Positions 1 to 11,485 of a stretch of DNA of 11,485 nt are shown one piece after another. A model generated the notes under the pieces. It was given only the letters and a program-made list of their open reading frames with translations, did not search any database and was not told the origin of the DNA. The stretch comes from a virus. Numbering within the stretch: position 1 is the first letter of the stretch; each line of letters begins with the position of its first letter. The DNA lies in the IMG/VR virus record IMGVR_UViG_3300044941_000346; one strand, 5' to 3'. Both the position numbers and the translations under genes were made by a program.

Positions 1-71
1 CGCGCATGGTGGACCCTACGGGTGCATTTCGCGGCGTCGCGATCGACGACGGATCGCATATATCGACGTCG

Positions 72-97
72 CGATAAACAATAAACGCGACGTCGCG
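72..97 (-). terminator. Possible intrinsic terminator after MVP: perfect 12-nt CG palindrome followed by a U-rich tract on the transcribed strand
   Basis: Plus-strand CGCGACGTCGCG (86..97) is a perfect palindrome (4-bp GC stem with ACGT loop). On the minus-strand transcript it is followed immediately by UUUAUUGUUUAUC (85..72). It lies 34 nt downstream of the MVP stop codon (131..133). The stem is short, so confidence is low. Confidence 0.3.
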
Positions 98-130: not shown

Positions 131-2602
131 TCACTTCTTGCCCTTCTCCGGCGTTGGCACGAGCGCCGTCACCTTCTCCAGCGCCGAGCCTTGCAGCAGG
201 CCCGCCAGCACCTCAGAGACAGACTTGCCGCCCAGGATCGCCAGCGGAGCCATCGACTCGGCCACGCGCTCGACCAGCGCGCGGTCGCTAAACGCTTGGA
301 GCGCGGCGATAAGATCTGGGCTGATCGCCGCGGCCTTTTTGACCGTGCCGTCGACATTGGCCGCCAGCTCCTCTAAGCGCTGCGCGAGCTTCTGCGCCTC
401 AAACGCCACCTGCGCGTCCTGCGCGGCCTTCTGGCGCGCGATCTCGGCGTCGTGGATCTTGGTTAGCGCTTCTTGCTCGGCGGTCTTGCCCTCCAGCGTG
501 GCCGCCTGCGCGCTGTTGGTGGCCGCGATCTCGGCCAGCCGCACGGCGAGCCGACGCGCGACCTCTTCCTCCCGAAGCGCCAGCTCCTTCTGCGTCGTCT
601 GCGCCAGGGTTTCCATGATCTGGCGCTTCACATCTTCTTGCTGCGATACAAACGCTAAGCGGCGCTGCTCGCTTGCTAGATCCAATGTTTGCTGTACCAC
701 TGAGTGCTGTGCCTGTGTGAGCAACTCCTCAATCTTTGCATCGCCTAGCCGAACTCCTAGCACCTCCACGTCATAAATGCGCATGCCGTTCTCTTCGAAC
801 GTGCGCCCCGGACGCTTGCCACCCGCGTCAGCCTTGCCCAATACCGCGTCGCGGATCACGGCGATGGCGTCACTATAAAAGCTCTGGATACCATGTTGTT
901 TGATAGCGTTGCGCAGTAGAGAGCGCATGTGATCTGTCAAGAACTTGACAAAATTCTCGACATTAAACCACAGGTTGGGGTCGCCCTCGAAGTTGACGCG
1001 GTAGCTCAAGTGGACGTGCACCTGGCACAGATCGCGCGTCTCGGCGTCGACCAGATCGGAGATCTTGTTGTGCAGCGCGCGCAGGTAGACCGTGCGCAGC
1101 AGGTTGGTGTCGGTCTTAGGCGTGCCGGTGGACAGCTCCATCGTCTCCAACGTCTCATCATACTCCAAAAGGCAAGCGTTTGGCCCTACGATCACCTTGC
1201 GCTCGCCCGACTTGCTCACGACCTTGACCGCGTAGCCTGTCCAGACGCCGATCGTGACTGCGCCCTCGTATTTTGTATCGAGCGTGATGGTGCGCGGCGG
1301 ACTAAACTGCTGCTTCCTGTTAAAGTCGTCGCCCGCGAAACCCTCGGCGGCTTCCGAGCGGCGCTGCTGTTTGGCCGCGAGTTCCAAGATGTTTGCCTGG
1401 GCCAGATCGCCGTCCGTGATGACGGCGCCGCCGGGCGCGCCGCGCTGGCTCATCATCTGTTGCAGCCGCGCGTTGTACTCCTGCGCCTCGCGATTGCCCG
1501 GATACCACAGCGCGACCTGCTTGTCCGTCAGCACGCGGCGCACGATGACCTCGCGGCGAGGATCGGGCAGGAACATTGCGGGGCCACGCACCAGGCGGAT
1601 CTGGCCGGTCTGACGGTCCAGGCAATAGCGCCCCTCGCCCGCAGGGATCGCCACCGCGTAGTGGATCTCGCGGTTGCCATACTTGATGAGTGCGTGCTCG
1701 GGTCGAGGGAAGTAGATCATCTGCTCTTTGCCTGTGATGAAGAGCTCTTGGCCGACCTTGAACTCGGCGCCGCCCTCGGTGTAGGGCGCGATGACCTTGA
1801 CATAGATGCCCGATAGCTCGTTGAGCTCGATGGCCTTGAACTTGCGCAGCCCGTCGCGCTCCACGAACGTCTCGGTCGGCTCGGGGAACACGACAGCGGG
1901 TCCCTGAATAAAACGCTTGTTGCCGTCCTCATCCAAGAGGATACAGTACTCTAGGCGCTCAAGCGTGACAGCATCGCGGATGTAGCTGCCTGCGGCGTCG
2001 GGCACGACCTCGATGCCCGTGGGCGGGATGTAGAAGCTGACCTCGGTGCCCTTGATGATGAGCTGCTGGCCGAGCGTAAAGTCGGGGGTCTGCTGGGCTG
2101 CGGGCTGCTGTGCGCCGTCATCGGCGCTGGTCTGGAGCTTGACCACCGCCGCGCTCCAGTGCTTGCGCGCGCTCTCCTCATCGTAGACGCGCACCGTGAG
2201 GTACTGGTTGGAGCGCAGTGTGTGGCCCTTGACCACCTTGACCATCTGGCCCGGCCACAGCGCGAAGGACTGCGGGCCGGGGATGTTGACCTTGTGGCCG
2301 ACGTGGAGCTGCATCAGGTTGTTGACCGTGCCGGTCTTGGGCTGCTCGCCGTCCTTGGCCGGGTTCTTGAGCACCAGATACCAGCCCTCGGGCGCGGTGG
2401 CGAAGACCCGGATCGCTGGCTCCAACATGCAGCGCTCAAAGCGCTTGCTCTTCTCATCGAAGAACACGGGCTGATCCGTGTTGGCCAGGCTCGTCTTGTA
2501 TGGGCCGACATAGACGTTGATGTTGCCCTTGGTCTGATCCGAGATAAACGCATACTCATTGGGGGCCAGGACCAGATCGCGCTCACGGGAGTTATCCGCC
2601 AT
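131..2602 (-). CDS. mvp: Major vault protein (MVP) homologue, 823 aa; shell protein of vault ribonucleoprotein particles
   Basis: The translation aligns with eukaryotic MVP along its whole length. The N-terminus MADNSRERDLVLAPNEYAFISDQTKGNINVYVGPYKT parallels human MVP [35 protein letters not shown]. It is followed by serial ~55-aa MVP-repeat modules, a shoulder (SPFH-like) region and a long Ala/Glu/Gln-rich cap-helix coiled coil (EQRRLAFVSQQEDVKRQIMETLAQ...EAQKLAQRLEELAANV). The tail is cap-ring-like (ISPDLIAALQAFSDRALVERVAESMAPLAILGG; compare human [33 protein letters not shown]). The track start at 2611 is a GTG; the ATG at 2602..2600 gives MADNS... and is preceded by AAGGTG (2614..2609) with a 6-nt spacer. 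Confidence 0.9.
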   Translation of the reverse strand: MADNSRERDLVLAPNEYAFISDQTKGNINVYVGPYKTSLANTDQPVFFDEKSKRFERCMLEPAIRVFATAPEGWYLVLKNPAKDGEQPKTGTVNNLMQLHVGHKVNIPGPQSFALWPGQMVKVVKGHTLRSNQYLTVRVYDEESARKHWSAAVVKLQTSADDGAQQPAAQQTPDFTLGQQLIIKGTEVSFYIPPTGIEVVPDAAGSYIRDAVTLERLEYCILLDEDGNKRFIQGPAVVFPEPTETFVERDGLRKFKAIELNELSGIYVKVIAPYTEGGAEFKVGQELFITGKEQMIYFPRPEHALIKYGNREIHYAVAIPAGEGRYCLDRQTGQIRLVRGPAMFLPDPRREVIVRRVLTDKQVALWYPGNREAQEYNARLQQMMSQRGAPGGAVITDGDLAQANILELAAKQQRRSEAAEGFAGDDFNRKQQFSPPRTITLDTKYEGAVTIGVWTGYAVKVVSKSGERKVIVGPNACLLEYDETLETMELSTGTPKTDTNLLRTVYLRALHNKISDLVDAETRDLCQVHVHLSYRVNFEGDPNLWFNVENFVKFLTDHMRSLLRNAIKQHGIQSFYSDAIAVIRDAVLGKADAGGKRPGRTFEENGMRIYDVEVLGVRLGDAKIEELLTQAQHSVVQQTLDLASEQRRLAFVSQQEDVKRQIMETLAQTTQKELALREEEVARRLAVRLAEIAATNSAQAATLEGKTAEQEALTKIHDAEIARQKAAQDAQVAFEAQKLAQRLEELAANVDGTVKKAAAISPDLIAALQAFSDRALVERVAESMAPLAILGGKSVSEVLAGLLQGSALEKVTALVPTPEKGKK

Positions 2603-2608
2603 CACACA

Positions 2609-2614
2609 CACCTT
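2609..2614 (-). promoter_or_regulatory. Shine-Dalgarno (AAGGTG) for the MVP gene, 6 nt upstream of the ATG at 2602
   Basis: Minus-strand read: caAAGGTGtgtgtgATGgcggataac. A purine-rich SD at canonical spacing supports a bacterial-type initiation and the ATG 2602 start. Confidence 0.45.
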
Positions 2615-2829
2615 GCAGGGTTAGGGCCTTCTTGTGCTACACGCGCGACGCGTACAACACACTCGCTCACTCGCTGGCCGACACCCTCTCACCCAAGCGG
2701 TGGCGTTGTCAACCATCAACCTTGTGTGTTGTTGAAATGAAGGCCGCGCCGCCAACCCCATGAAAACCGATATGCAGTCGTGTTGCCGCGACGGCTGCAT
2801 CGATCGACGTCACGATTGACATCGCCGCC

Positions 2830-3705
2830 TCACCACCTGACCGGGATGCGCTCCGGCACGCCATCGCCAAACGTCTCGTAGAGGTTCAAGCGATCCATAT
2901 GCACATAACCGATGTGGCAGCCGCAGGTCTCGTTGGTGCAGGGCGAGCGCACGAGCGTTGTGTCGAAGCCCTCGTTGTAGATGTTGCCGATCGGCGTTTT
3001 GATGAAGTGACAGCGCCGCGCAGTGCCATCGCCGTCAACCGTAAAAGCGCTGTAGCCCGCGCGGCATGAGGCGCCAAGCGAGGCGTGGCGCGTGGCGTTG
3101 TAGCGAAAGAGCGGATCGATCTGCTCAAACTTTAGCAGGTCAAGCTCTTGGTAATAGCCAGGGTCGCGCTTGTAGGCGTTGATCCACATGTAGACGCTTG
3201 GATCCAGCTCGGCGCGCAGCGCATTTAGCTCGTCGAGCGCGTCCTTGAACCCCACAGCGCCCACCGAGTAGCGCACGCCGCGCGTGTCCAGCTCGCGGCA
3301 CTTGGCCACAAACCCCGCGCGCGTGATCTGGGTCGGGTGGTACGTTGTCCACAGCGCCAGCACGTTGCGGTTGGCGCGCTCGGTCCAGCCAAGCTTGCAT
3401 GTCAGGTTGGTTTGGATTGCCGCACGCCACACATGGGGCATGTGGCTTAACTCAATCAGGGCCTCCTGATAATGTCGCCTTATCAATCCCTCGCCCCAGG
3501 GCGTAAACAATAATCCGATCTGCTTATCTGTGCGGAGGCGTATCCACTCGACAAAGCGCTCTAGCTTTAGTCGATCATCCTCTAGCTCCGCGCGTGTATT
3601 GCGGGTCTTGGCAAATGGGCAGTAGTCGCAAGCATAGTTGCAGCTCGACAGCGGACCGCGATACAAGATCACCCATCTGTCTGCAGCCTCGTGTGGCGTC
3701 TTCAT
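2830..3705 (-). CDS. Radical SAM enzyme (Cx3Cx2C = CNYACDYC) with a C-terminal Cys cluster; resembles, from memory, the STM4011-type rSAM family
   Basis: The ORF has the canonical rSAM motif ...WVILYRGPLSSCNYACDYCPFAK near the N-terminus and a C-terminal cysteine cluster (CRAGY...RRCHF...SPCTNETCGCHIGYVH). The start is placed at ATG 3705..3703 (MKTPHEAADRW...), which forms an ATGA 4-bp overlap with the upstream gene stop (3704..3702). The track's longer ORF from 3756 would overlap the upstream gene by 55 bp. Confidence 0.8.
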   Translation of the reverse strand: MKTPHEAADRWVILYRGPLSSCNYACDYCPFAKTRNTRAELEDDRLKLERFVEWIRLRTDKQIGLLFTPWGEGLIRRHYQEALIELSHMPHVWRAAIQTNLTCKLGWTERANRNVLALWTTYHPTQITRAGFVAKCRELDTRGVRYSVGAVGFKDALDELNALRAELDPSVYMWINAYKRDPGYYQELDLLKFEQIDPLFRYNATRHASLGASCRAGYSAFTVDGDGTARRCHFIKTPIGNIYNEGFDTTLVRSPCTNETCGCHIGYVHMDRLNLYETFGDGVPERIPVRW

Positions 3706-5099
3706 GTGATCGCAAAGCCCCGCATCATTGCCTCCACCTTGGGCGAGTTCATCCACGGGCCGATCACGTCCGAGGCGTCGATCCCACGCTGCGTCAGCGC
3801 GAGCGTCCCGGCCTCACGGCGCACCAGCCCCAGTGCCTCCAGCTCCGCCACCTGTGGCAGCGCCTCGTCGAGCGACACCCCGAACCTGCGCGCAAACAGG
3901 GCGAGGTCGAGCGCGTGTGCGCCGCCATCGGCCAAGAGCGACACCACCACGAAGCGGCGCTGCTGCTCGGCCTCGTCCAGTAGAAAGCCGTAGTGGACCG
4001 CACCAAAGAACTCAGCGGGGCGCTGCACCCAGTCCTCGATGATGTGTACCACGCTGCGTCGTCCCACCGCCCACTCCGTCGAGTAGTGCAGCCCGCGCGT
4101 GTAGGATCGCGCGCCTACGCCCAGGCCCACCATCCCATCCGTCGCTGGGTGGTACGCCGGCCCGCGCGTGCGCGGTGTATGATCGGCACGCACGAACATC
4201 CGCATCGATCGCTGATTGTAGCCATGGGATAGAAGATAATCGCGGCCCTGTTGATACAGATCATAGCGCCAGTCATCCCACGCCTTGTCCGAGTTTCCTA
4301 GTCCCGTCAGCGGCCTCACATACAGAGGATACAAGAAGATCTCCTCGGAGCCATACGCCACCGCCGCTTCAAGCGAGCGCTCCCAGCTCTGTGCTGTCTG
4401 GCCCTCGATCCCGTAGATGAGGTCGATGTTGCGCTCCTCAAAGCTGCCGCTCGCCAAGAGTTCAAGCGCGCGCTCCAGCACCTTGTGCCGCTGCGGCCTG
4501 CGCACCGCCTTGGTCTCCGACTCCAAGAAGCTTTGCACCCCCATCGACACCCGCGTCACGTTAAATCTCTTTAATATGTCGATCTTCGATGGTGTCAGCG
4601 TCTCCGGGCTGACCTCACACGAGAGCGGGATCTGCGGCGCGCTGCCGCCCAGCGGCGCCCCCATGATCCCGGCCGCGACCCGCTCAAACAGCGCCTCAAG
4701 CGACGCGTCATCCAGCTGCGTCGGCGTCCCGCCCCCCACCGCCATCCGCGCAAACCCCACCTCGCGCTCGCCCAGCGCGCGCCGCGTCTGCTCGGCCTGC
4801 CGCGTCAGCGCCCCCAAGAAACCCCTGTGCAGCGCATCGCCTGGCTTGGCCATCGCGAACAGGTTACAGAACCCGCAGCGCATCTCGCAGAACGGCACAT
4901 GAATATACAGGTAGAGCGCGCGCGTGTCCTCCTCGCGCCAGACCTCCTCCAGCTGCAGTGCTGGCTCGATCGGGCGATAGGCCGTCTTATGCGGATAAGC
5001 GTAGGCATAAGATTGAAACGGTGAACCGGTCAGCCGCATGGCGAGCGTCCCGGTCGGCATCGCCGTGTGCGGTGTCGTCGTGATCTGTGTCGTCGTCAT
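3702..5099 (-). CDS. HemN/HemW-like radical SAM enzyme (oxygen-independent coproporphyrinogen-oxidase family fold); STM4012-like by recollection
   Basis: YLYIHVPFCEMRCGFCNLF is the HemN-family signature (YxHxPFC + Cx3Cx2C). The length (~465 aa) and the C-terminal winged-helix-like tail are typical of HemN-like proteins. The start is placed at ATG 5099..5097 (MTTTQITTTPH...), giving an ATGA overlap with the upstream hydrolase stop (5098..5096). The 43-codon N-terminal extension in the track (to 5228) overlaps the hydrolase gene and is rejected. Confidence 0.8.
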   Translation of the reverse strand: MTTTQITTTPHTAMPTGTLAMRLTGSPFQSYAYAYPHKTAYRPIEPALQLEEVWREEDTRALYLYIHVPFCEMRCGFCNLFAMAKPGDALHRGFLGALTRQAEQTRRALGEREVGFARMAVGGGTPTQLDDASLEALFERVAAGIMGAPLGGSAPQIPLSCEVSPETLTPSKIDILKRFNVTRVSMGVQSFLESETKAVRRPQRHKVLERALELLASGSFEERNIDLIYGIEGQTAQSWERSLEAAVAYGSEEIFLYPLYVRPLTGLGNSDKAWDDWRYDLYQQGRDYLLSHGYNQRSMRMFVRADHTPRTRGPAYHPATDGMVGLGVGARSYTRGLHYSTEWAVGRRSVVHIIEDWVQRPAEFFGAVHYGFLLDEAEQQRRFVVVSLLADGGAHALDLALFARRFGVSLDEALPQVAELEALGLVRREAGTLALTQRGIDASDVIGPWMNSPKVEAMMRGFAIT

Positions 5100-5923
5100 C
5101 TCTGCTCCATGCTGGTCTTCGCAGCTGAATAGAAGGCGTGCGCGTAGGGCACGTCCCACACCGCTTGATGCGCCAGCCGATGCCCGTAGAACCCATCCTC
5201 CCCATACGCTGTCCCGTGGTCCCCACATACGATACAGAACGTCTCATCCCGCAGCGATTCTAGTAGTAATGGCAGCTGGCTGTCTACATAGCGCAGCGCC
5301 GCTGCGTGCGTCTCGATCGTGTCCTCCGCCGCCCCATCTATATAAAAGCGATTCGGCTGGTGCAGCGCTGAGACATTGATAAACAGGAACGTGCGCTGCT
5401 CAGGTGCAAGCGCTCGTAGCCGCTCACCAGCTAGCTCAAACTGGTTTTTTGTAGAGTCTCGATCCGTCACGCCGAGCTTGGGCGCCCAGTGGCTCTCGTG
5501 AAATAAATTTGGTAGGACAGACCCCAGCGCCGTCTGCTTATTAAAGAAGCCCACGCCGCCGATGCAGATCGTGTGGTAGCCGCGCGCCGCCAGCCCCGTC
5601 ACAATGTCCGCCTCCTGCATCACACACGTCGTCTGTCCAGTCGTCTCCGATCCGCCAAAACTCGCCGCGAACAGCCTCACATGCCGCCCCGGTCTCGCCG
5701 GCGTCGGCAGAAACCCCGCGAAGAACGCTTGGTGTGCCGCATACGTAAAGCTCCCCGGCGTGTGCCGCCGCTCCCAGCCTCCCGGCCCGATCAGCCGCGC
5801 CAAGTGCGGCGTCTCGCCCGACCGCATCAGCCTGTCCGCCACATCAAAGCGCAGCGTATCCAGCGTCATAAACAGGATGTCGTGCGCCCCCACCACCGCG
5901 TTCATGTCCACATCATCGCTCAT
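5096..5923 (-). CDS. Alkaline-phosphatase-superfamily metallohydrolase (sulfatase/NPP/phosphonoacetate-hydrolase-like); STM4013/SEN3800-like by recollection
   Basis: The N-terminal metal-ligand block ILFMTLDTLRFD and the C-terminal block CIVCGDHGTAYGEDGFYGH (DHG...GxH) are hallmarks of the alkaline phosphatase / type I phosphodiesterase fold. The start is ambiguous. Candidates are GTG 5929 (17-bp overlap), ATG 5923 (11-bp overlap) and ATG 5905 (7-nt gap after the upstream TGA). None has a clean SD. Confidence 0.75.
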   Translation of the reverse strand: MSDDVDMNAVVGAHDILFMTLDTLRFDVADRLMRSGETPHLARLIGPGGWERRHTPGSFTYAAHQAFFAGFLPTPARPGRHVRLFAASFGGSETTGQTTCVMQEADIVTGLAARGYHTICIGGVGFFNKQTALGSVLPNLFHESHWAPKLGVTDRDSTKNQFELAGERLRALAPEQRTFLFINVSALHQPNRFYIDGAAEDTIETHAAALRYVDSQLPLLLESLRDETFCIVCGDHGTAYGEDGFYGHRLAHQAVWDVPYAHAFYSAAKTSMEQR

Positions 5924-7736
5924 CTTCACGCATCAACCACGCCTCAAGCTCTGTCACCTCGCCAAGCTCCACCTCGGGCGCTGGCTGCGCCACATGCCAC
6001 GTCCTGCCGCGCACTACCCACGCCGTCCTCAGCCCCACACACCGCGCCCCCAGCAGATCGTGCACCGGCGTATCACCGACCATCACCGCCGCGCGCGGAT
6101 CTTCCGCGCAGCCCGTCGCCGACAGCGCGGCCTCGAAGATCGCCGCGTCTGGTTTTGTAGCGCCGATCTCGTCTGAGATAAAGATCGCATCAGGATCAAA
6201 ATGTCGCAGGAGGTCAGCCCGCGCCAGCTTGTCGCGCTGGCTCGCGCTGCCACCGTTGCTCAACAGCGCCAACTTGTAACGTTTGCTCAATCGCTCAAGC
6301 ATCGCTTGAATCGCAGGCTCTGGCACAAGCTCCGCCGCGATGCGGCGCGGTAGCTCGGCCCACACGGCCCGCCACTCGCCCGCCTCCCTGCCGAGCAGCC
6401 CACACAGCGCCTCACACAACACTCGCCGATCCCCATGCCCATGCGCGTCCAGCGCAAACACCCGCGCCAGCGCCTCGTCATCACAGCCCGTCCAGCGCCG
6501 CACCGCCGCGCAGAACGCCGCGTCGCGGTCGATCAACGTGTTGTCGAGATCAAACAGCACCGCCCGTATCTTTGGCCACGCCTCCAGCCTGCCCCAGCCC
6601 GCAAAGCCCCGCACCTCCGCCGTATAGCTGTCCTCCCCACGATCATACACATTGGGCAGCAGATCCCCAAACGCATTGACCTCGATGATACGCGGCGCAT
6701 CCAGCGCATCCGCCGGGAACAACACGTCCGCCCCCAGATAATACGCGCCCGGAAACGCCTGCGCTGCCTGCCTACACAATACCTCAAGCGCGCTCCACCC
6801 CACATCTCCCACCAGCGCCCGCACCTGATCCAGCTCCCCCCGCGCGTTCCCCAGATGAAGGTTTGTCATGGGATGCTCTGAGGCCCGCACCACCACCTGA
6901 CGCGCCTCACCGCCGATCACCACCACCCGCAGATCAAAGTTTTTGTCCTGACCATCATGTCGGATCATCGCCTTTGATGACCACTTCTCCACCACCGCAC
7001 CCTCCGCCAATAAATAATTTAGCAGTAGCGCGATCTGTCGAATGTCGTGATAACGTCGCGGTCGAAGTGAATTGTAAATGGAGAACCTGCCGTCGCTGTC
7101 CTCCACCAGATGGGCCGTGGTGGTCAACATCGCGCGCGGGCCGCTGACGCGCAGAGCCGCAACGCCCGACGCAGACGAGCTGCCGCGCAGCTTCACAAAC
7201 ACCCGATCCCAGCCCGCCTCGTCCATCCGCGCCCGCAGCGCCTCCCACGATCCCACGCCCTCCAGCGATGGCATCCTCGGCACACCATGCGCGTCCAATC
7301 TGCGGTGCGTCGCCAGCTTGTCAAACATCACCGCGATCTCGTCCGGGCGGCTCATGATGCGCCCCGGCGCACCTTCAAGTATCACTTGAAGGTCGCGCAA
7401 GACCGCCTGCCAGCCCGCGCGCAGCTGCCCCGGCGCCAAAAGCCTGCCGTGCTCAAGCGGCGCACAGAGCGCCTCCTGCGCGGTAAGCGTCGGCTCGTCC
7501 AGCTCCTCCGCACCGCGCGCCAGCAGCCTGCGCGTCACGCGCGCATCCTCGCCCGGCGACTCCAGCCGCAGGATCGTGTCGTCGTCCAGCAGATCTGGCA
7601 GCACCACGCGCCCCTCCAACACGTCGAGCCACGCCACAAAGCGCGCCGCGCTGTGGCCGCTGCGCATCAGCGCGTCCTGCACGTACGCTGTGCGGCGATG
7701 CCCCGCGTTGCCCACCACCACCCACCGCCTCGTCAT
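5913..7736 (-). CDS. Two-domain fusion: N-terminal ATP-grasp ligase (RimK/glutathione-synthetase-like) + C-terminal HAD-superfamily phosphatase
   Basis: ATP-grasp: DLRVVVIGGEARQVVVRASEHPMTNLHLGNARGE matches the RimK core ([32 protein letters not shown]). The motif ...RIIEVNAFGD is also present. HAD: motif I FDLDNTL (aa ~398), S/T motif LLSNGG, Lys in GATKPD, and the motif IV block MVGDTPVHDL. The start is placed at ATG 7736..7734 (MTRRWVVVGN...), giving an ATGA overlap with the upstream LRR gene stop (7735..7733). Confidence 0.8.
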   Translation of the reverse strand: MTRRWVVVGNAGHRRTAYVQDALMRSGHSAARFVAWLDVLEGRVVLPDLLDDDTILRLESPGEDARVTRRLLARGAEELDEPTLTAQEALCAPLEHGRLLAPGQLRAGWQAVLRDLQVILEGAPGRIMSRPDEIAVMFDKLATHRRLDAHGVPRMPSLEGVGSWEALRARMDEAGWDRVFVKLRGSSSASGVAALRVSGPRAMLTTTAHLVEDSDGRFSIYNSLRPRRYHDIRQIALLLNYLLAEGAVVEKWSSKAMIRHDGQDKNFDLRVVVIGGEARQVVVRASEHPMTNLHLGNARGELDQVRALVGDVGWSALEVLCRQAAQAFPGAYYLGADVLFPADALDAPRIIEVNAFGDLLPNVYDRGEDSYTAEVRGFAGWGRLEAWPKIRAVLFDLDNTLIDRDAAFCAAVRRWTGCDDEALARVFALDAHGHGDRRVLCEALCGLLGREAGEWRAVWAELPRRIAAELVPEPAIQAMLERLSKRYKLALLSNGGSASQRDKLARADLLRHFDPDAIFISDEIGATKPDAAIFEAALSATGCAEDPRAAVMVGDTPVHDLLGARCVGLRTAWVVRGRTWHVAQPAPEVELGEVTELEAWLMREDER

Positions 7737-8992
7737 GCCATCCACCAGGGGTCATCCGGGTCGAGCGCCGCTGCGCACCAGCGCGCCCCCACCTCATCAA
7801 GCTCCGCGCGCACCGCCGCGCTGGCCGCAATCGCAGCCAGCGTCACCTCATTAAAGCCGTTCCCATTTAACACCACCCGCGCGCTCGGATGCAGCCGCGG
7901 CGACGTGATCAGCGCCAGCGCCCCCGCGTCCGTGAGCTGCGTCGCCGACAGATTTAGTAGGCGCAACTGCCCCACCCACGGCAGCGCCAGCAGCCGCTCT
8001 ACGGCTTGATCCGTCAACGGGTTGTCGCTCAGATCCAGCGCGGTCAGCCCCCAGCTGTGCCCTTCTGTGAGTGGCTCGAACAGCGTGTCCAGCGTCGCAT
8101 CGTCGATCCTGCACTCGCCCAGCTCCAGCGTCTTCAAGCGACCCAGCACCGCAGGCGCCTCGCGCAGCACATGCGCCCCTCCGTGCAAGAATAGATTGCC
8201 GCGCAGCGACAGGTGCCGCAGCGCCTCCCAGCCCGACAACGCGAAGATGTGCATACACGGCAGCCCGTGGTGCCCCTCACAGTGCTCCAGCCAGAGCGAC
8301 TCCAGCACGGGCGCCGCGTCCGCAACCTCGACCAGCGCGTCCAACCCCGCGCTGCCGCCCACGCCGAGCGGGTTGCGCGACAGATCCAGGTGCCGCAGCC
8401 CCCGCACCAGCGGTGCACGCGCCAGCCGCACCAGCGGCAGCGCCATCGGCTGCGCGTTATTGCTCGTTGCACGTGTCACGTTCGCCAGGCTCAACCGCTC
8501 AAGCGGCGGCTTATCTGGCTCATCTTGCAGCCAGGCGTCCAGCGCGCCCAACACATCATTGTCCGACAGGTCAAGCGCGCGGAGCCGGTTGTGCTCGGCC
8601 AGCCGCTCCATCAGCGGCCCCACCATATGCTCGTGCAGGCTCGTCCCAGCCAGATCGAGCTGCGTGATGTGCCCCAGCGCCGGATGCTCGATCAGGCGCT
8701 GCATCTTGTCCCGATCCGTCAGCTGCACATGCACTCGCAGCCGCCTGGCGAGCGCCAGCGCGGGCAGCTTGTCGCCCGATAGCACCCGCGCAATCCAGCG
8801 CCGAGGCGCCACCCGCCAGCTATCCTCCCAGCCGCGCAGCTGCGCCTCACAATACGGCAGCGCCTGCTCGGCCAACGATCCATCGTCTGGCCACCGCTCC
8901 AGGAGCGCGCACAGCGCCCCCCACGTCTGCGGCTCAGGCGCGCGCTGCAGTAGGCTGCGCAGCTCCCCGAACAACACCTCGCGCTCGCTCAA
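7733..8992 (-). CDS. RNI-type leucine-rich-repeat protein, paralogue A (~419 aa), with a ~75-aa Trp-rich N-terminal domain shared by the downstream paralogues
   Basis: There are multiple 25-29-aa repeats of the form LxxLxLSxNxLxDxgaxxL (LDLSDNDVLGALDAWL, LDLSRNPLGVGGSAGLDAL, LDLSDNPLTDQAVERLLAL, LNLSATQLTDAGALAL). The N-terminal domain is LFGELRSLLQRAPEPQTWGALCALLERW...ALPYCEAQLRGWEDSWRVAPRRWIARVLSG. The likely start is TTG 8992..8990, preceded by AGGTGG (9003..8998) with a 5-nt spacer, giving a TTGA 4-bp overlap with the upstream stop. The alternative is GTG 9001 (the track start). Confidence 0.75.
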   Translation of the reverse strand: MSEREVLFGELRSLLQRAPEPQTWGALCALLERWPDDGSLAEQALPYCEAQLRGWEDSWRVAPRRWIARVLSGDKLPALALARRLRVHVQLTDRDKMQRLIEHPALGHITQLDLAGTSLHEHMVGPLMERLAEHNRLRALDLSDNDVLGALDAWLQDEPDKPPLERLSLANVTRATSNNAQPMALPLVRLARAPLVRGLRHLDLSRNPLGVGGSAGLDALVEVADAAPVLESLWLEHCEGHHGLPCMHIFALSGWEALRHLSLRGNLFLHGGAHVLREAPAVLGRLKTLELGECRIDDATLDTLFEPLTEGHSWGLTALDLSDNPLTDQAVERLLALPWVGQLRLLNLSATQLTDAGALALITSPRLHPSARVVLNGNGFNEVTLAAIAASAAVRAELDEVGARWCAAALDPDDPWWMA

Positions 8993-9855
8993 GGCTCCCA
9001 CCTCTCGTCATCCACCCACACCGCAAGCTCTGGTCGCTGCGCATACAGATGCTCAAGCGCCGCGCGCACGGAGCGCTCACGCACCTCCAGCCCCGTCAGC
9101 CTGACCTCGCGCAGCGTCGGCAGCTGCTTGGGCGCCGCGCTCAACCACTCCAGGCGCACCCGGTTCCCACTTATATTTAAAGTCTCAATGCTCTCCATGC
9201 GATCCGTGAGCATCGCGTGAATCGATAGATCATTGTCGCTGATGTTAAGGTGTTTGATATGACTCATTGCGCCAGCTTTATTTATATGGACAGCATAGAC
9301 TGTGCTCAGCCCACAGCGTCGCAGGCTTATCCGAGCCAGCTTTGTCGCATCTGCGGGGAGCATCGCCCAGACACCTCGACCACCAAGTGGATTGTGATCA
9401 AGTGTCAAGGATTCGAGAACAGACCAGCTCAGATGACGCCCCAAGATCGCTCCTGCTTCCTCGCCTAAATCACACTCCGACAACATCACATGTGTGAGCG
9501 GCCCCATATCGGGGTTGCTTAATACTACCAAGAGTCCGTGATCGCCGAGCGGGCCGCGGTGGTGGAGGTGGCGGGCTAGCCGCCACAGCCTGCACCGCTC
9601 GCCGCGCAGCGTGGCCCGCATCCAAGCCGCCGGGTTGACGCGCATGGCGTCAGGCCAGGCTTTGAGGTGCTCCTCGGCGTAGGGGATGAGCATCTCCCAC
9701 AGGTAGTCATCATGCGCTGCGGGTGCCAGCACCGCGCAGATCTCGGCCCAGACAAGCGGGCAGGGCGGGCGGTGCAGCAGGCTGCGCAGCTCGGAGAGGC
9801 GCCACTCGGGCGAATCACGATGGGTTTTGGGTGAGGGAGACGGCATCAAGCTCAC
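8989..9855 (-). CDS. RNI-type leucine-rich-repeat protein, paralogue B (288 aa), same N-terminal domain family
   Basis: N-terminal domain: WRLSELRSLLHRPPCPLVWAEICAVL...LIPYAEEHLKAWPDAMRVNPAAWMRATLRGE. It aligns with paralogue A through the conserved ELRSLL, ALPY/LIPY, W(P/E)D..RV.P and W(I/M) positions. LRRs: LTLDHNPLGGRGVWAML, LNISDNDLSIHAML, LNISGNRVRLEWL. The GTG start at 9855..9853 forms a GTGA overlap with the upstream stop. ATG 9846 is the alternative. Confidence 0.75.
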   Translation of the reverse strand: MSLMPSPSPKTHRDSPEWRLSELRSLLHRPPCPLVWAEICAVLAPAAHDDYLWEMLIPYAEEHLKAWPDAMRVNPAAWMRATLRGERCRLWRLARHLHHRGPLGDHGLLVVLSNPDMGPLTHVMLSECDLGEEAGAILGRHLSWSVLESLTLDHNPLGGRGVWAMLPADATKLARISLRRCGLSTVYAVHINKAGAMSHIKHLNISDNDLSIHAMLTDRMESIETLNISGNRVRLEWLSAAPKQLPTLREVRLTGLEVRERSVRAALEHLYAQRPELAVWVDDERWEP

Positions 9856-10573
9856 AGGTCGTCGTCGTAGGGCTCCTCAAGCTCGATCATAGCCTCGTTG
9901 GCGCTGCTCAACAACTCCAGCCGCGCGTTGCAGCCGACGGGGTTGGGCGACAGGCTCAACTGCTCCATCCGTTTGAGCCACACGCACGCCGCGAGCGCAT
10001 AGGCGCCGCGCGAGTTTATGGGGTTGCGCTCAAGCTCGATCGCGGTCTGCGCCGCAAGCCGTAGGCCCGTCACCAGCAGCTCCAGCCCCTCGTCATAGAG
10101 CGCGCAGCTGTGGAGCGACAGGTTGGTCAAGGCGCGCTCGACGCCGCGCGGCGCCTATGCGGTTGTGGCTCAGGTTGGGCGAGACAAGCCGCGTCAGGTG
10201 CGGGCACTGGACGCTGGCGTGCGGATGCCCTTGTCGCTGACCGAGGACCTGTAGCGCATGACGCGCACCAGCACAAGGGACGCCCCCGGATGGCGTGCTT
10301 GATCCAATCCGGGGGCGCGACGCGCAGCGCGTCAGGCCATGTGTCCAGCGCACGCTTGAGGTAGGGCAGGGCCCTCTCGGTGAACAGATCTGGTCGCTCT
10401 GGTTGCGCCTGGTAGGCGTCGATCGCGCGTCCCAGCGCATTCCAGCGCGCCGCGTCGGGCTGGCCGTGCGCAACGCCGCAGAATTCCCCATACCAAGTTG
10501 TCTTGATTGACCTTCTTTTTGCGCTACAAAATGCGTGTTCGGTGTGGTCGGTAAAAGGCTGAGCCAAAGGCAA
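9852..10573 (-). pseudogene. Third LRR paralogue, apparently disrupted by two frameshifts (N-domain in one frame, first LRRs in a second, C-terminal LRRs + acidic tail in a third)
   Basis: Frame 1 (10127..10573) encodes the N-domain homologue WYGEFCGVAHGQPDAARWNALGRAIDAY...ALPYLKRALDTWPDALRVAPPDWIKHAIRGRPLCW. Frame 2 (within 10093..10491) continues with ARHALQVLG...CPHLTRLVSPNLSHNRIGAA, which matches paralogue B LARHLHHRGPLG...GPLTHVMLSECDLGEEAGA. Frame 3 (9852..10130) encodes LRRs and ends EEPYDDDL. This implies single-nt indels near ~10300 and ~10130. Confidence 0.5.
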
Positions 10574-10639
10574 TGAGGCAGAATGAAGGAAGCTTGGTAT
10601 TATTTGTTATCTTATCTCCTCGTTTTATCGTGGTCTTTG

Positions 10640-10825
10640 TTATGTGTTAAAGTGACGGTTTAAGCGTGGCCGCTCACTCCACCAAGTCGTAGAACGTGCC
10701 AAACTCGATCTCCAGAGCGCCTTCCACGCCTCGGCGCTGGACGGCTGCTCCAGCGCGCTGCGCAGCTCACCGAACCGCGCGCTGTGATCACTCACCGACT
10801 TCGACATACCAGTAGTCATCGTCAT
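10640..10825 (-). pseudogene. Orphan fragment of the LRR-paralogue N-terminal domain (first ~25 aa conserved, then degenerates and stops)
   Basis: The 61-aa ORF contains ARFGELRSALEQPSSAEAWKALW, closely matching LFGELRSLLQRAPEPQTWGALCALLERW of paralogue A. The remainder has no similarity and runs into the AT-rich spacer. It overlaps the 3' end of the upstream LRR gene in another frame. Confidence 0.3.
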
Positions 10826-11485
10826 CGTCGGCGCGGCGCTGCCCGCCGTTACGCACCGTCACGCCCGTCGCGCGGAGCTGGTCGATCAGCTCCTCATCGC
10901 CGATGAAGTTATTGGTGATATCAATCGACTTGAGCTTGCCGATCTTTGGATTCCTCGCTAGCGCACCGGCTCCTGTATTCGACATGATCCCCTTCGACAG
11001 ATCCAGCTCCTCCAGGAAGTCCAGCACAGGCGCATCAAACAGCGCCTCCGCCAGCTCGTCCGCCAGCTCGCTGTTCACCAGCCCCAGCCGCTTGAGCTTG
11101 GGGAACGGATACCGCATCTCCGGATACGCTGTCCCCACCAGCAGCGGCTTCACATCCTCCACCGTCACGTCCGCCCCGTACTCGCTGCTCCCCGTCCAGA
11201 TCTCCAGATGCTGCAGGTTCGGCAGCTTCGCGCTCACGATCTGGCGCACCGTGTGGCCGCTCACGCCGCCTGTCTCCACGATCAGCGTCTCCAGCGTCGG
11301 GTGGCTCAGGCCCGTGAACCCCAGCCCGTTGCCGCCGCGCGCCTTGAAGTGCTTGAGCTTGGGGAAGGCGTTGATCACCGCGCCCAGATCAAACTGCTCG
11401 ATCCACGACACCTCGCTCTCCTCATAGGAGATGTCGCCCACAAACAGCGCCTCCAAGGAGGTGAGCTTGGGCGCCGCCGCCCGCA
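10788..11485 (-). CDS. RNI-type LRR protein, 5'-partial (start lies beyond the window end), with acidic/aromatic C-terminal tail DDDDDYWYVEVGE
   Basis: The open frame runs off the window at 11485; M at 11456 is only the first in-window Met. Repeats LETLIVETGGVSGHTVRQI, LQHLEIW, LKRLGLVNSELADELAEAL, LEELDLSKGIMSNTGAGALA, LKSIDITNNFIGDEELIDQL are RNI-like LRRs. The composition (more K/I/F) differs from paralogues A/B, so it may be a distinct LRR subtype. Confidence 0.75.
   Translation of the reverse strand, partial: RAAAPKLTSLEALFVGDISYEESEVSWIEQFDLGAVINAFPKLKHFKARGGNGLGFTGLSHPTLETLIVETGGVSGHTVRQIVSAKLPNLQHLEIWTGSSEYGADVTVEDVKPLLVGTAYPEMRYPFPKLKRLGLVNSELADELAEALFDAPVLDFLEELDLSKGIMSNTGAGALARNPKIGKLKSIDITNNFIGDEELIDQLRATGVTVRNGGQRRADDDDDYWYVEVGE

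Follow-up and report, generated by a model that had tools for sequence, protein, structure and literature searches.

A stand-alone major vault protein-like gene, probably chromosomal, beside an unrelated radical SAM operon in likely Myxococcota DNA

The shell of the rat vault is a 78-mer. Eukaryotic major vault protein, or MVP (rat, human and rabbit; 4V60, 4HL8, 9BW5, 9Z4W), shares its domain order and fold with the bacterial protein described here, at an identity of about 16-25% (16-18% to metazoan MVP when the comparison is based on structure). Bacterial MVP homologues have been reported earlier from sequence (Daly 2013, PMC3762200; Sokolskyi 2019, bioRxiv 10.1101/872010). Santos 2023 (bioRxiv 10.1101/2023.11.10.566534) gave a mean length of 822 aa for them and described phage-encoded cases, and literature from 2026 (PMC12962969) still places vaults in 'only a few Bacteria'. 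Our literature searches found no experimental reports on the assembly of any bacterial MVP homologue. MVP-like proteins of Myxococcota and Bacteroidota include those of Plesiocystis pacifica (A6FXM1, A6FXE2), Enhygromyxa salina, Microscilla marina (A1ZGE7) and Saprospira grandis (H6L4P8). The SPFH cage formers (HflK/C, flotillin, prohibitin, stomatin, QmcA) have the same shoulder fold followed by a long cap-bundling helix, but they are membrane-anchored and lack the repeat wall of about 500 aa. The gene studied here lies in a window of 11,485 nucleotides, the whole stretch of DNA analysed, and is a further member of the bacterial family known from sequence since 2013.

The MVP-like coding sequence occupies positions 131..2602 on the minus strand and encodes 823 aa, matching the published bacterial mean, with an ATG start and a TGA stop (131-133). 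A start at the in-frame GTG (2611) would lengthen the protein by 3 aa, but the alignments with homologues begin at the ATG. Pfam finds the MVP shoulder (E 1.3e-27), Vault_3 (4.2e-8) and a weak Band_7 match (3.7e-4), a pattern common to the Myxococcota and Bacteroidota members. The identical protein carries the JGI label 'major vault protein', and a profile of the family matches rat MVP at E 1e-40. The identification of the gene as MVP, made from the DNA letters, was thus borne out by the open reading frame, the shoulder domain and the profile. The full-length protein gave no phmmer match among PDB sequences at E <= 0.001 (at E <= 10, a murine R1-R7 fragment appeared at 0.27), whereas MVP is matched clearly by the fragment covering the shoulder and by the profile of the family. 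We would guess that the full-length search penalises the low-complexity, A/E/Q-rich helix. The protein is collinear with eukaryotic MVP through the first beta-repeat, the SPFH-like shoulder and the long cap helix.

The predicted structure agrees with this order of domains. An AF2 run on 46 close homologues left residues 1-510 at pLDDT 51.5, which was fixed by a second run on 89 more diverse sequences. The resulting monomer model has a pLDDT of 83.8, above 90 over most of residues 10-410 and 445-510, and it retrieves full-length vault chains as its top PDB matches, with 830-930 aligned columns and E values from 1e-35 to 1e-27. The N-terminal beta-repeat region (aa 1-510; 1073..2602, minus strand) is supported by the model, by Foldseek, in which the N-terminal 450 residues match R1-R7 of murine MVP (E 4e-16), and by profile segments pairing residues 14-52 with rat 10-47 (R1) and 230-352 with rat 294-409 (R6-R8). 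We estimate about 8 vault-type repeats in this region, compared with 9 in eukaryotic MVP; the first half thus appears to lack one repeat. Internal repeat signals were weak when the protein was compared with itself by hhalign (best E 2.4e-4), and Vault_3 (33.6 bits, cut-off 28.8) is the sole Pfam vault-repeat model matched. Within the region, a loop around aa 157-178 is disordered, and a further difference from eukaryotic MVP is a helical and disordered insert of about 90 aa at approximately aa 358-448.

The SPFH/band-7-like shoulder follows at aa 511-621 (740..1072, minus strand), where PF11978 scores 96.6 bits against a cut-off of 25; by phmmer, the shoulder fragment matches residues 476-662 of human and rat MVP at E ~1e-6. 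Next comes the equivalent of the cap helix (aa 622-757, about 135 residues; 332..739, minus strand), which DSSP reads as one continuous helix in the model and which aligns with rat 647-816. The protein ends in a conserved tail of 66 aa (aa 758-823; 134..331, minus strand) with the motif SPDLIAALQAFSDRA...ESMAPLAILGGKSV. Many columns of this tail are invariant in the alignment of 46 homologues, including P762, F771, D773 and M784-G792. The tail sits where the cap-ring would be expected, is modelled at pLDDT below 60, and aligns to rat MVP over its first ~16 residues alone. Whereas an N-terminal motif is common to both proteins (DLVLAPNEYAFISDQTKG here, with a 15-residue counterpart in rat MVP), the highly conserved C-terminal motif is distinct from that of eukaryotic MVP.

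It had been proposed that the protein is shorter than metazoan MVP in the cap-ring region. This does not hold, since about 50 residues remain beyond the point where the alignment to rat MVP ends, against 45 in rat itself. The deficit of 38 aa relative to rat MVP sits in the shoulder and cap-helix, and the stretch from R9 through the shoulder to the cap-helix measures about 317 residues here and 359 in rat. As to other vault components, none of the contig's 19 predicted genes encodes the partners TEP1 or PARP4 (MINT domain), a count that covers this locus only, and no Rfam family, vault RNA included, was found on 17.8 kb of the contig (L001).

The bacterial family is not a set of rare lineages, as had been supposed. 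It comprises more than 7000 clusters at 90% identity and 1368 at 50% identity, under about 10 phylum-level labels, yet it is held by a small minority of bacterial species only. The best 150 representatives of the 50% clusters are all bacterial and all at least 42% identical, and the 120 clusters listed among the more than 7000 are 57-88% identical to the window protein. We confirmed 150 genome loci with an MVP-like gene and fetched 80 of them for neighbourhood analysis. Full-length identity to the window protein is 57-63% at the Plesiocystis, Enhygromyxa and Microscillaceae loci, with 61-62% over residues 1-811 for Plesiocystis pacifica SIR-1 and Enhygromyxa salina. Unlike these members, the window protein comes from a Bradymonadales-like lineage and shares a tree branch of its own with one other sequence (L003). 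Homologues in huge phages (LR756500, LR756501, LR756503) are full-length, cover 98% and belong to the bacterial branch of the family, but they are only 43.5% identical and phage-borne, whereas nothing around the gene in the window is of phage type.

The sequence-only reading also took the gene to be probably horizontally acquired. A recent acquisition, whether the donor was a eukaryote or belonged to another phylum, would fit the patchy occurrence of the family over bacteria, the copies in huge phages together with the published phage cases (bioRxiv 10.1101/2023.11.10.566534), the high identity of 57-67% between phyla, and the position of the window protein and L003, which branch near Planctomycetota/Sericytochromatia and outside the Polyangia clade. 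However, when codon usage was compared with that of the flanking genes, MVP was indistinguishable from its contig: its RSCU correlates with the rest of the contig at r = 0.88 (other genes 0.65-0.94) and its GC3 is 0.83, within a contig range of 0.71-0.90. No mobile-element genes flank it, and a search of plasmids for copies came back empty. Elsewhere the sequences in the tree, a neighbour-joining tree of bacterial sequences without support values, mostly cluster with others of their phylum; for the relationship to eukaryotic and cyanobacterial MVPs we relied on trees already published. The resemblance to eukaryotic MVP is far too remote for a recent eukaryotic donor. We therefore consider recent acquisition improbable and do not retain the earlier claim; nothing in the present data points to a gene taken up recently or donated by a eukaryote, while an ancient transfer in either direction may have occurred.

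Could the protein be a long SPFH/band-7 membrane scaffold and not a vault protein? The weak Band_7 match speaks for this, as do the Foldseek secondary matches of the shoulder to prohibitin, flotillin, HflK/C and stomatin, and one homologue bears the name 'SPFH domain-containing protein' under NCBI naming. Nevertheless, those structural matches extend over about 250 columns at E ~1e-6, far short of what the vault chains give; the N-terminal 450 residues match murine R1-R7 (~1e-16), and no N-terminal hydrophobic segment was seen when the sequence was read by eye. A membrane scaffold is thus very unlikely, and we keep the reading as an MVP-like protein.

Upstream of the gene, on the same strand, lies a cassette of the STM4011-STM4015 type, and the radical SAM/HAD/ATP-grasp operon that had been recognised from the letters was recovered with NCBIfam models. 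It consists of an STM4011-family radical SAM gene (2830..3705; NF038073, E 1e-115), an STM4012-family HemN-like radical SAM gene (3702..5099; NF006067, E 1e-157), a STM4013/SEN3800-family sulfatase-like hydrolase gene (5096..5923; NF038075, E 5e-122) and an STM4014-family gene (5913..7736), whose ATP-grasp-like part (NF038074, aa 8-379) is only weakly similar to RimK/LysX and is fused to a C-terminal HAD domain (HAD_2, 396-577). Two tandem LRR paralogues follow (7733..9855; 7733-8992 and 8989-9855), recognised by Pfam LRR models and a weak STM4015 match. Finally, an STM4015-family gene runs off the window (10788..11485; NF038076, E about 1e-67, 228.3 bits, below the curated cut-off of 275 and covering the C-terminal 222 aa only); the full gene encodes 309 aa (L001 886-1815). 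All these genes are on the minus strand. The order of the canonical cassette is kept and none of its five families is missing; it differs in the fusion of STM4014 to HAD and in an LRR component that has grown to 3-4 paralogues. An added HAD also occurs at three other loci, as a separate gene in two (L083, L085) and fused in the third (L092). A literature search on the cassette returned three incidental mentions only, and PADLOC gave no defence-system match for MVP and marginal ones only for the radical SAM genes.

Given this arrangement, MVP might close the STM4015-4011 operon as its final gene and form a shell around the radical SAM enzymes in the manner of an encapsulin. The gene lies on the same strand, 227 bp downstream of STM4011. 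The spacer (2603..2829, minus strand) showed no promoter-like or minus-strand terminator-like site in our scan, no Rfam match, and an RNA fold z-score of -0.18, at background; because it has no terminator-like site, MVP may be co-transcribed with STM4011. The adjacency was seen again in a second sample, but that locus is 100% identical and therefore comes from the same organism and is not an independent case. Against the proposal, the cassette lies beside none of the 80 other bacterial MVP loci; it is also missing next to an 88% identical relative, and STM4011 is not found upstream of an 84% relative. Conversely, MVP does not accompany the cassette homologues of four other contigs where downstream sequence is present; their terminal neighbours are EamA or SDR genes. 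Nor does any other neighbour family recur at more than 13 of the 80 MVP loci, the common ones being generic kinases and ABC transporters. An operon-encoded shell for these enzymes is accordingly very improbable. The STM4011-4015 operon is an accidental neighbour of MVP; it counts for the bacterial context only and has no functional tie to the gene.

That context was correctly recognised from the beginning. All genes lie on one strand, with about 63% GC and no introns. The serial start/stop overlaps, a sign of translational coupling, were confirmed, five of 4 bp (ATGA at 3702-3705, 5096-5099 and 7733-7736, TTGA at 8989-8992, GTGA at 9852-9855) and one of 11 bp (5913-5923), with MVP itself outside this chain. 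The Shine-Dalgarno sequences that had been adduced held only in part: three of seven starts have a clear and properly spaced motif (MVP, AGGTG at -11..-7; STM4012, GGAG; the first LRR gene, GGGAG), but at the others the motif is weak or absent. The parent contig Ga0484951_003065 (JGI 3300044940), 19.5 kb long and empty in Rfam and tRNA (ARAGORN) scans, also carries Omp85/BamA (POTRA), SUI1, DUF72 and a Na/Ala symporter. This symporter shares 60-62% identity with those of Lujinxingia, Bradymonadaceae and Persicimonas, and STM4012 is 52-55% identical to Myxococcaceae proteins, its nearest named relatives being in Myxococcaceae and Gemmataceae. Flanking genes are closest to Bradymonadales and other Myxococcota, and the 52-62% identities of these two genes suggest that the host is most likely a member of the Myxococcota near Bradymonadales, a placement that is tentative as to order or class. 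That the window is instead eukaryotic, a Leishmania-like, GC-rich and intron-less array with a genuine eukaryotic MVP, can practically be dismissed: single-strand genes, GC content and intron absence, taken alone, fit a trypanosomatid polycistron, but this reading is refuted by the 4-bp overlaps between neighbours, by Omp85/BamA, by a cassette fitting NCBIfam models made for naming bacterial and archaeal proteins, by the bacterial genomes in which MVP, the symporter and STM4012 all have their closest homologues, and by an MVP with Vault_3 as its only vault-repeat match and 16-18% structure-based identity to the metazoan protein.

Taken together, we are confident, with some reserve, that this is a chromosomal, stand-alone MVP-like gene, an ordinary member of its bacterial family, in a Gram-negative host that is most likely a member of the Myxococcota near Bradymonadales. 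The bacterial context is correct and also unsurprising, because an ordinary gene of a large family lies in a myxobacterium-like chromosome next to an unrelated operon.

How such a protein might work is suggested by its relatives. Many MVP-like copies probably pack side by side, as those of eukaryotic MVP and SPFH-type cage formers do. The product would be a cytoplasmic shell, vault-like or half-vault, with a thin wall made of the beta-repeats and a cap in which the long helices are bundled. Shell assembly by the bacterial protein is inferred by analogy with these systems, and the monomer model is silent on the size of the oligomer. We hypothesize that bacterial MVP-like proteins, the one in the window included, build genuine vault-type nanocompartments in which MAPLAILGG, the strictly conserved motif of the C-terminus, would close the cap or dock cargo, a proposal that we hold tentatively and with slightly more doubt than conviction. 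In a bolder version, the lineage of the window could have put the shell to use for the neighbouring radical-SAM cassette.

In summary, the finding has little consequence for the window alone, where the contig is bacterial and the gene routine. The family, however, is much larger and more widespread than published accounts say, highly conserved and without fixed gene partners. This makes it a tractable way to ask about the function of vault-type shells and the origin of eukaryotic vaults. If the proposed shells are real, a cytoplasmic protein organelle would exist in about 10 bacterial phyla and in huge phages, and would be far commoner than 'only a few Bacteria' implies.

The minus strand carries all credible genes of the window. 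Among them, the CDS at 131..2602 (-) encodes a protein of 823 aa from an ATG start, preceded by an AGGTG Shine-Dalgarno-like motif. JGI labels the identical protein 'major vault protein' (MVP). Pfam places the MVP shoulder domain at aa 511-621 (E 1.3e-27) and a single Vault_3 repeat at aa 464-507, with a sub-threshold match to Band_7. A search of PDB sequences with the full-length single sequence failed to find a match, and in a single-sequence search the R9-shoulder fragment matched human and rat MVP 476-662 (E about 1e-6). An alignment of 89 family members served both as a profile and as AlphaFold2 input. The profile matched rat MVP at E 1e-40 (profile 461-787 to rat 457-816), and picked up smaller, collinear segments of R1 (profile 14-52, rat 10-47) and of R6-R8 (profile 230-352, rat 294-409). 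The AlphaFold2 model (mean pLDDT 83.8) comprises beta-rich repeats (aa 8-357), a helical and disordered insert (358-448), a last repeat (449-510), an alpha/beta shoulder (511-621), a single helix (622-757) and a poorly defined C-terminal tail. Foldseek against PDB ranked full-length vault chains from rabbit, human and rat first (E 7e-35 to 5e-27, 830-930 aligned columns, 16-18% identity), followed by murine R1-R7 (about 1e-16), with other SPFH cage proteins only at about 1e-6. Taken together, the sequence profile and the comparison of the predicted fold show that the protein is a true full-length, if distant, MVP homologue.

Rat MVP is longer (861 aa), and the sequence-only reading had placed the difference in the cap-ring. 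The N-terminal parts are of equal length, about 456 aa; judging from the alignment offsets, the bacterial protein appears to have one beta-repeat fewer, made up for by the insert at aa 358-448. Counted from R9 up to where the alignment ends, there are about 317 residues, against 359 in rat, and past that point about 50 against 45. The deficit thus sits in the shoulder loops and cap-helix, and a shortened cap-ring is not borne out. The tail itself (aa 758-823, window 134-331; SPDLIAALQAFSDRA...ESMAPLAILGGKSV) is nearly invariant across 46 homologues drawn from many phyla. Model confidence in the tail is low, and only its start aligns with eukaryotic MVP; it may act in cap closing or docking as an element specific to this family. 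Downstream of the gene, 36-67 nt past the stop codon (window 64-95), a perfect 10-nt inverted repeat (CGCGACGTCG) surrounds a T-rich 12-nt loop; a CGCGACGTCGCG palindrome overlaps the repeat. The element is no canonical intrinsic terminator, but it may still serve in termination or as a binding site for a protein.

The gene could be imagined as trypanosomatid DNA, but trypanosomatid arrays have long intergenic spacers, so the overlapping start and stop codons here disfavour that origin, as do the bacterial cassette and Omp85 gene on the contig and the absence of the strong Pfam vault-repeat matches expected of a eukaryotic MVP. The prokaryotic host proposed from the sequence is upheld. The parent 19.5-kb JGI metagenome contig (L001) also encodes an Omp85/POTRA outer-membrane protein, SUI1, DUF72 and a Na+/alanine symporter, whose closest named relatives are bacterial: Lujinxingia vulgaris, Bradymonadaceae and Persicimonas (60-62% identity). 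Those of STM4012 are Corallococcus, Myxococcus, Stigmatella and Pyxidicoccus (52-55%). These relatives make a Myxococcota bacterium near Bradymonadales the most likely host, but identities of 52-62% do not suffice to pin down the order.

Upstream of MVP, and separated from it by 227 bp, lies the STM4011-STM4015 cassette, transcribed on the minus strand in the order STM4015-family gene, degraded LRR paralogue, two LRR genes, STM4014-HAD fusion, STM4013, STM4012 and STM4011. Start-to-stop overlaps of 4 bp occur five times among these genes, and one of 11 bp once. Four cassette enzymes score well above the curated cut-offs of their own NCBIfam models; the STM4015-family gene, cut by the window end, falls just below (228.3 bits, cut-off 275). 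The third LRR paralogue, at 9852-10573 (-), is probably degraded: ORF 10127-10573 resembles the LRR2 N-terminal 'WPDA.RV.P..W' domain (42% identity, 36 aa, E 6e-8), ORF 9852-10130, in a different frame, resembles LRR2 residues 120-165 (E 2e-5), and an LRR-like 'LSHNRIG' motif lies in the third frame (10093-10491). The cause is either a frameshift in a pseudogene or an error in the assembly. In Myxococcota-like contigs (window 2830-11485; loci L083, L084, L085, L092) a HAD hydrolase is a regular sixth cassette gene between STM4014 and STM4013, fused to STM4014 in the window and L092 and separate in L083 and L085, and one to four LRR/STM4015-like genes head the cassette. A literature search on the cassette returned three incidental mentions only.

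In none of 80 other MVP loci does a cassette gene lie within 10 kb; four of them have no more than a radical SAM gene of roughly 22% identity, encoded on the other strand. In the 88% relative, AAA-type genes and not the cassette adjoin MVP, and STM4011 was not seen in the up to 560 bp available upstream of the 84% relative. The converse comparison agrees: EamA or SDR genes come after the cassette homologues in L083, L084 and L085. When flanking ORFs were clustered all against all, no family reached more than 13 of the 80 fetched loci; the recurring ones are histidine kinases, Ser/Thr kinases, ABC transporters and LepA. The sole second case of adjacency, a locus from another sample (L002), is 100% identical and hence the same organism. 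On these results MVP-like genes behave as stand-alone units, and the flanking operon is coincidental.

From the sequence alone, this gene had been read as one of the rare, probably horizontally acquired bacterial MVP lineages; neither the rarity nor the transfer is supported. At least 7000 significant matches were found in the 90%-cluster database, the best 120 being full length at 57-88% identity, and an exhaustive 50%-representative search gave 1368 clusters at E <= 1e-3, 655 of them reaching E <= 1e-30. With one genome per GTDB species, a scan for close relatives confirmed 150 loci. The 80 fetched carry labels of Myxococcota, Bacteroidota, Planctomycetota, Chloroflexota, Desulfobacterota, Gemmatimonadota, Riflebacteria, Moduliflexus and Vulcanimicrobiota/Xenobia; they also include non-photosynthetic Cyanobacteriota (Sericytochromatia; Melainabacteria from the 90%-cluster search), and some MAGs are labelled Bacillota. 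Although only a minority of species carry it, the family is thus broad and large. In a neighbour-joining tree without support values the proteins group largely by phylum, the window's MVP pairing with a 'Deltaproteobacteria' MAG (L003). Codon usage matches the contig (RSCU correlation 0.88, other genes 0.65-0.94; GC3 0.83, within the contig's range), and nothing indicates recent gain. The likeness to eukaryotic MVP is so remote that a recent eukaryotic donor is ruled out. In the same tree, the MVP of a Synergistia-labelled MAG (L031) is nearly identical to those of Vulcanimicrobiota MAGs (L029, L030, L032), which suggests a binning or labelling error and not transfer; some Bacillota labels (L048, L062) sit in the same clade. 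Full-length copies at 43.5% identity in three huge-phage genomes make occasional mobility plausible; a plasmid search for MVP copies found none. The phage copies lie at LR756500.1 20964-23387 (L086) and at 17239-19599 in LR756501.1 and LR756503.1, in unannotated records of 462-kb and 735-kb genomes. Such mobility has already been published for gut phages (bioRxiv 10.1101/2023.11.10.566534).

Overall, the gene adds one more ordinary member to an already known family. Known structures of eukaryotic vaults and of SPFH cages (HflK/C, flotillin, prohibitin) establish that rings form through the shoulder-plus-helix module and that the wall of vaults is built from the repeats. The bacterial protein retains all of these modules; its N-terminus is very conserved and its C-terminal motif almost invariant. 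From homology and fold, which are established here, we infer assembly: with all modules kept and both termini conserved, a homo-oligomeric vault-like or half-vault shell in the cytoplasm would be the most likely product. Daly et al. 2013 (PMC3762200) described homologues in Plesiocystis, Corallococcus, Microscilla, Saprospira, Flexibacter and Herpetosiphon, about 25% identical to eukaryotic MVP, with the prediction that these proteins could dock into particles. Sokolskyi 2019 (bioRxiv 10.1101/872010) distinguished a chemotroph clade whose proteins contain band-7 from a cyanobacterial-eukaryotic one, and Santos et al. 2023 (bioRxiv 10.1101/2023.11.10.566534) put the mean length in bacteria at 822 aa. 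No experiments on any bacterial member turned up in our literature search, and the bacterial MVP family stands as an under-studied candidate bacterial nanocompartment.
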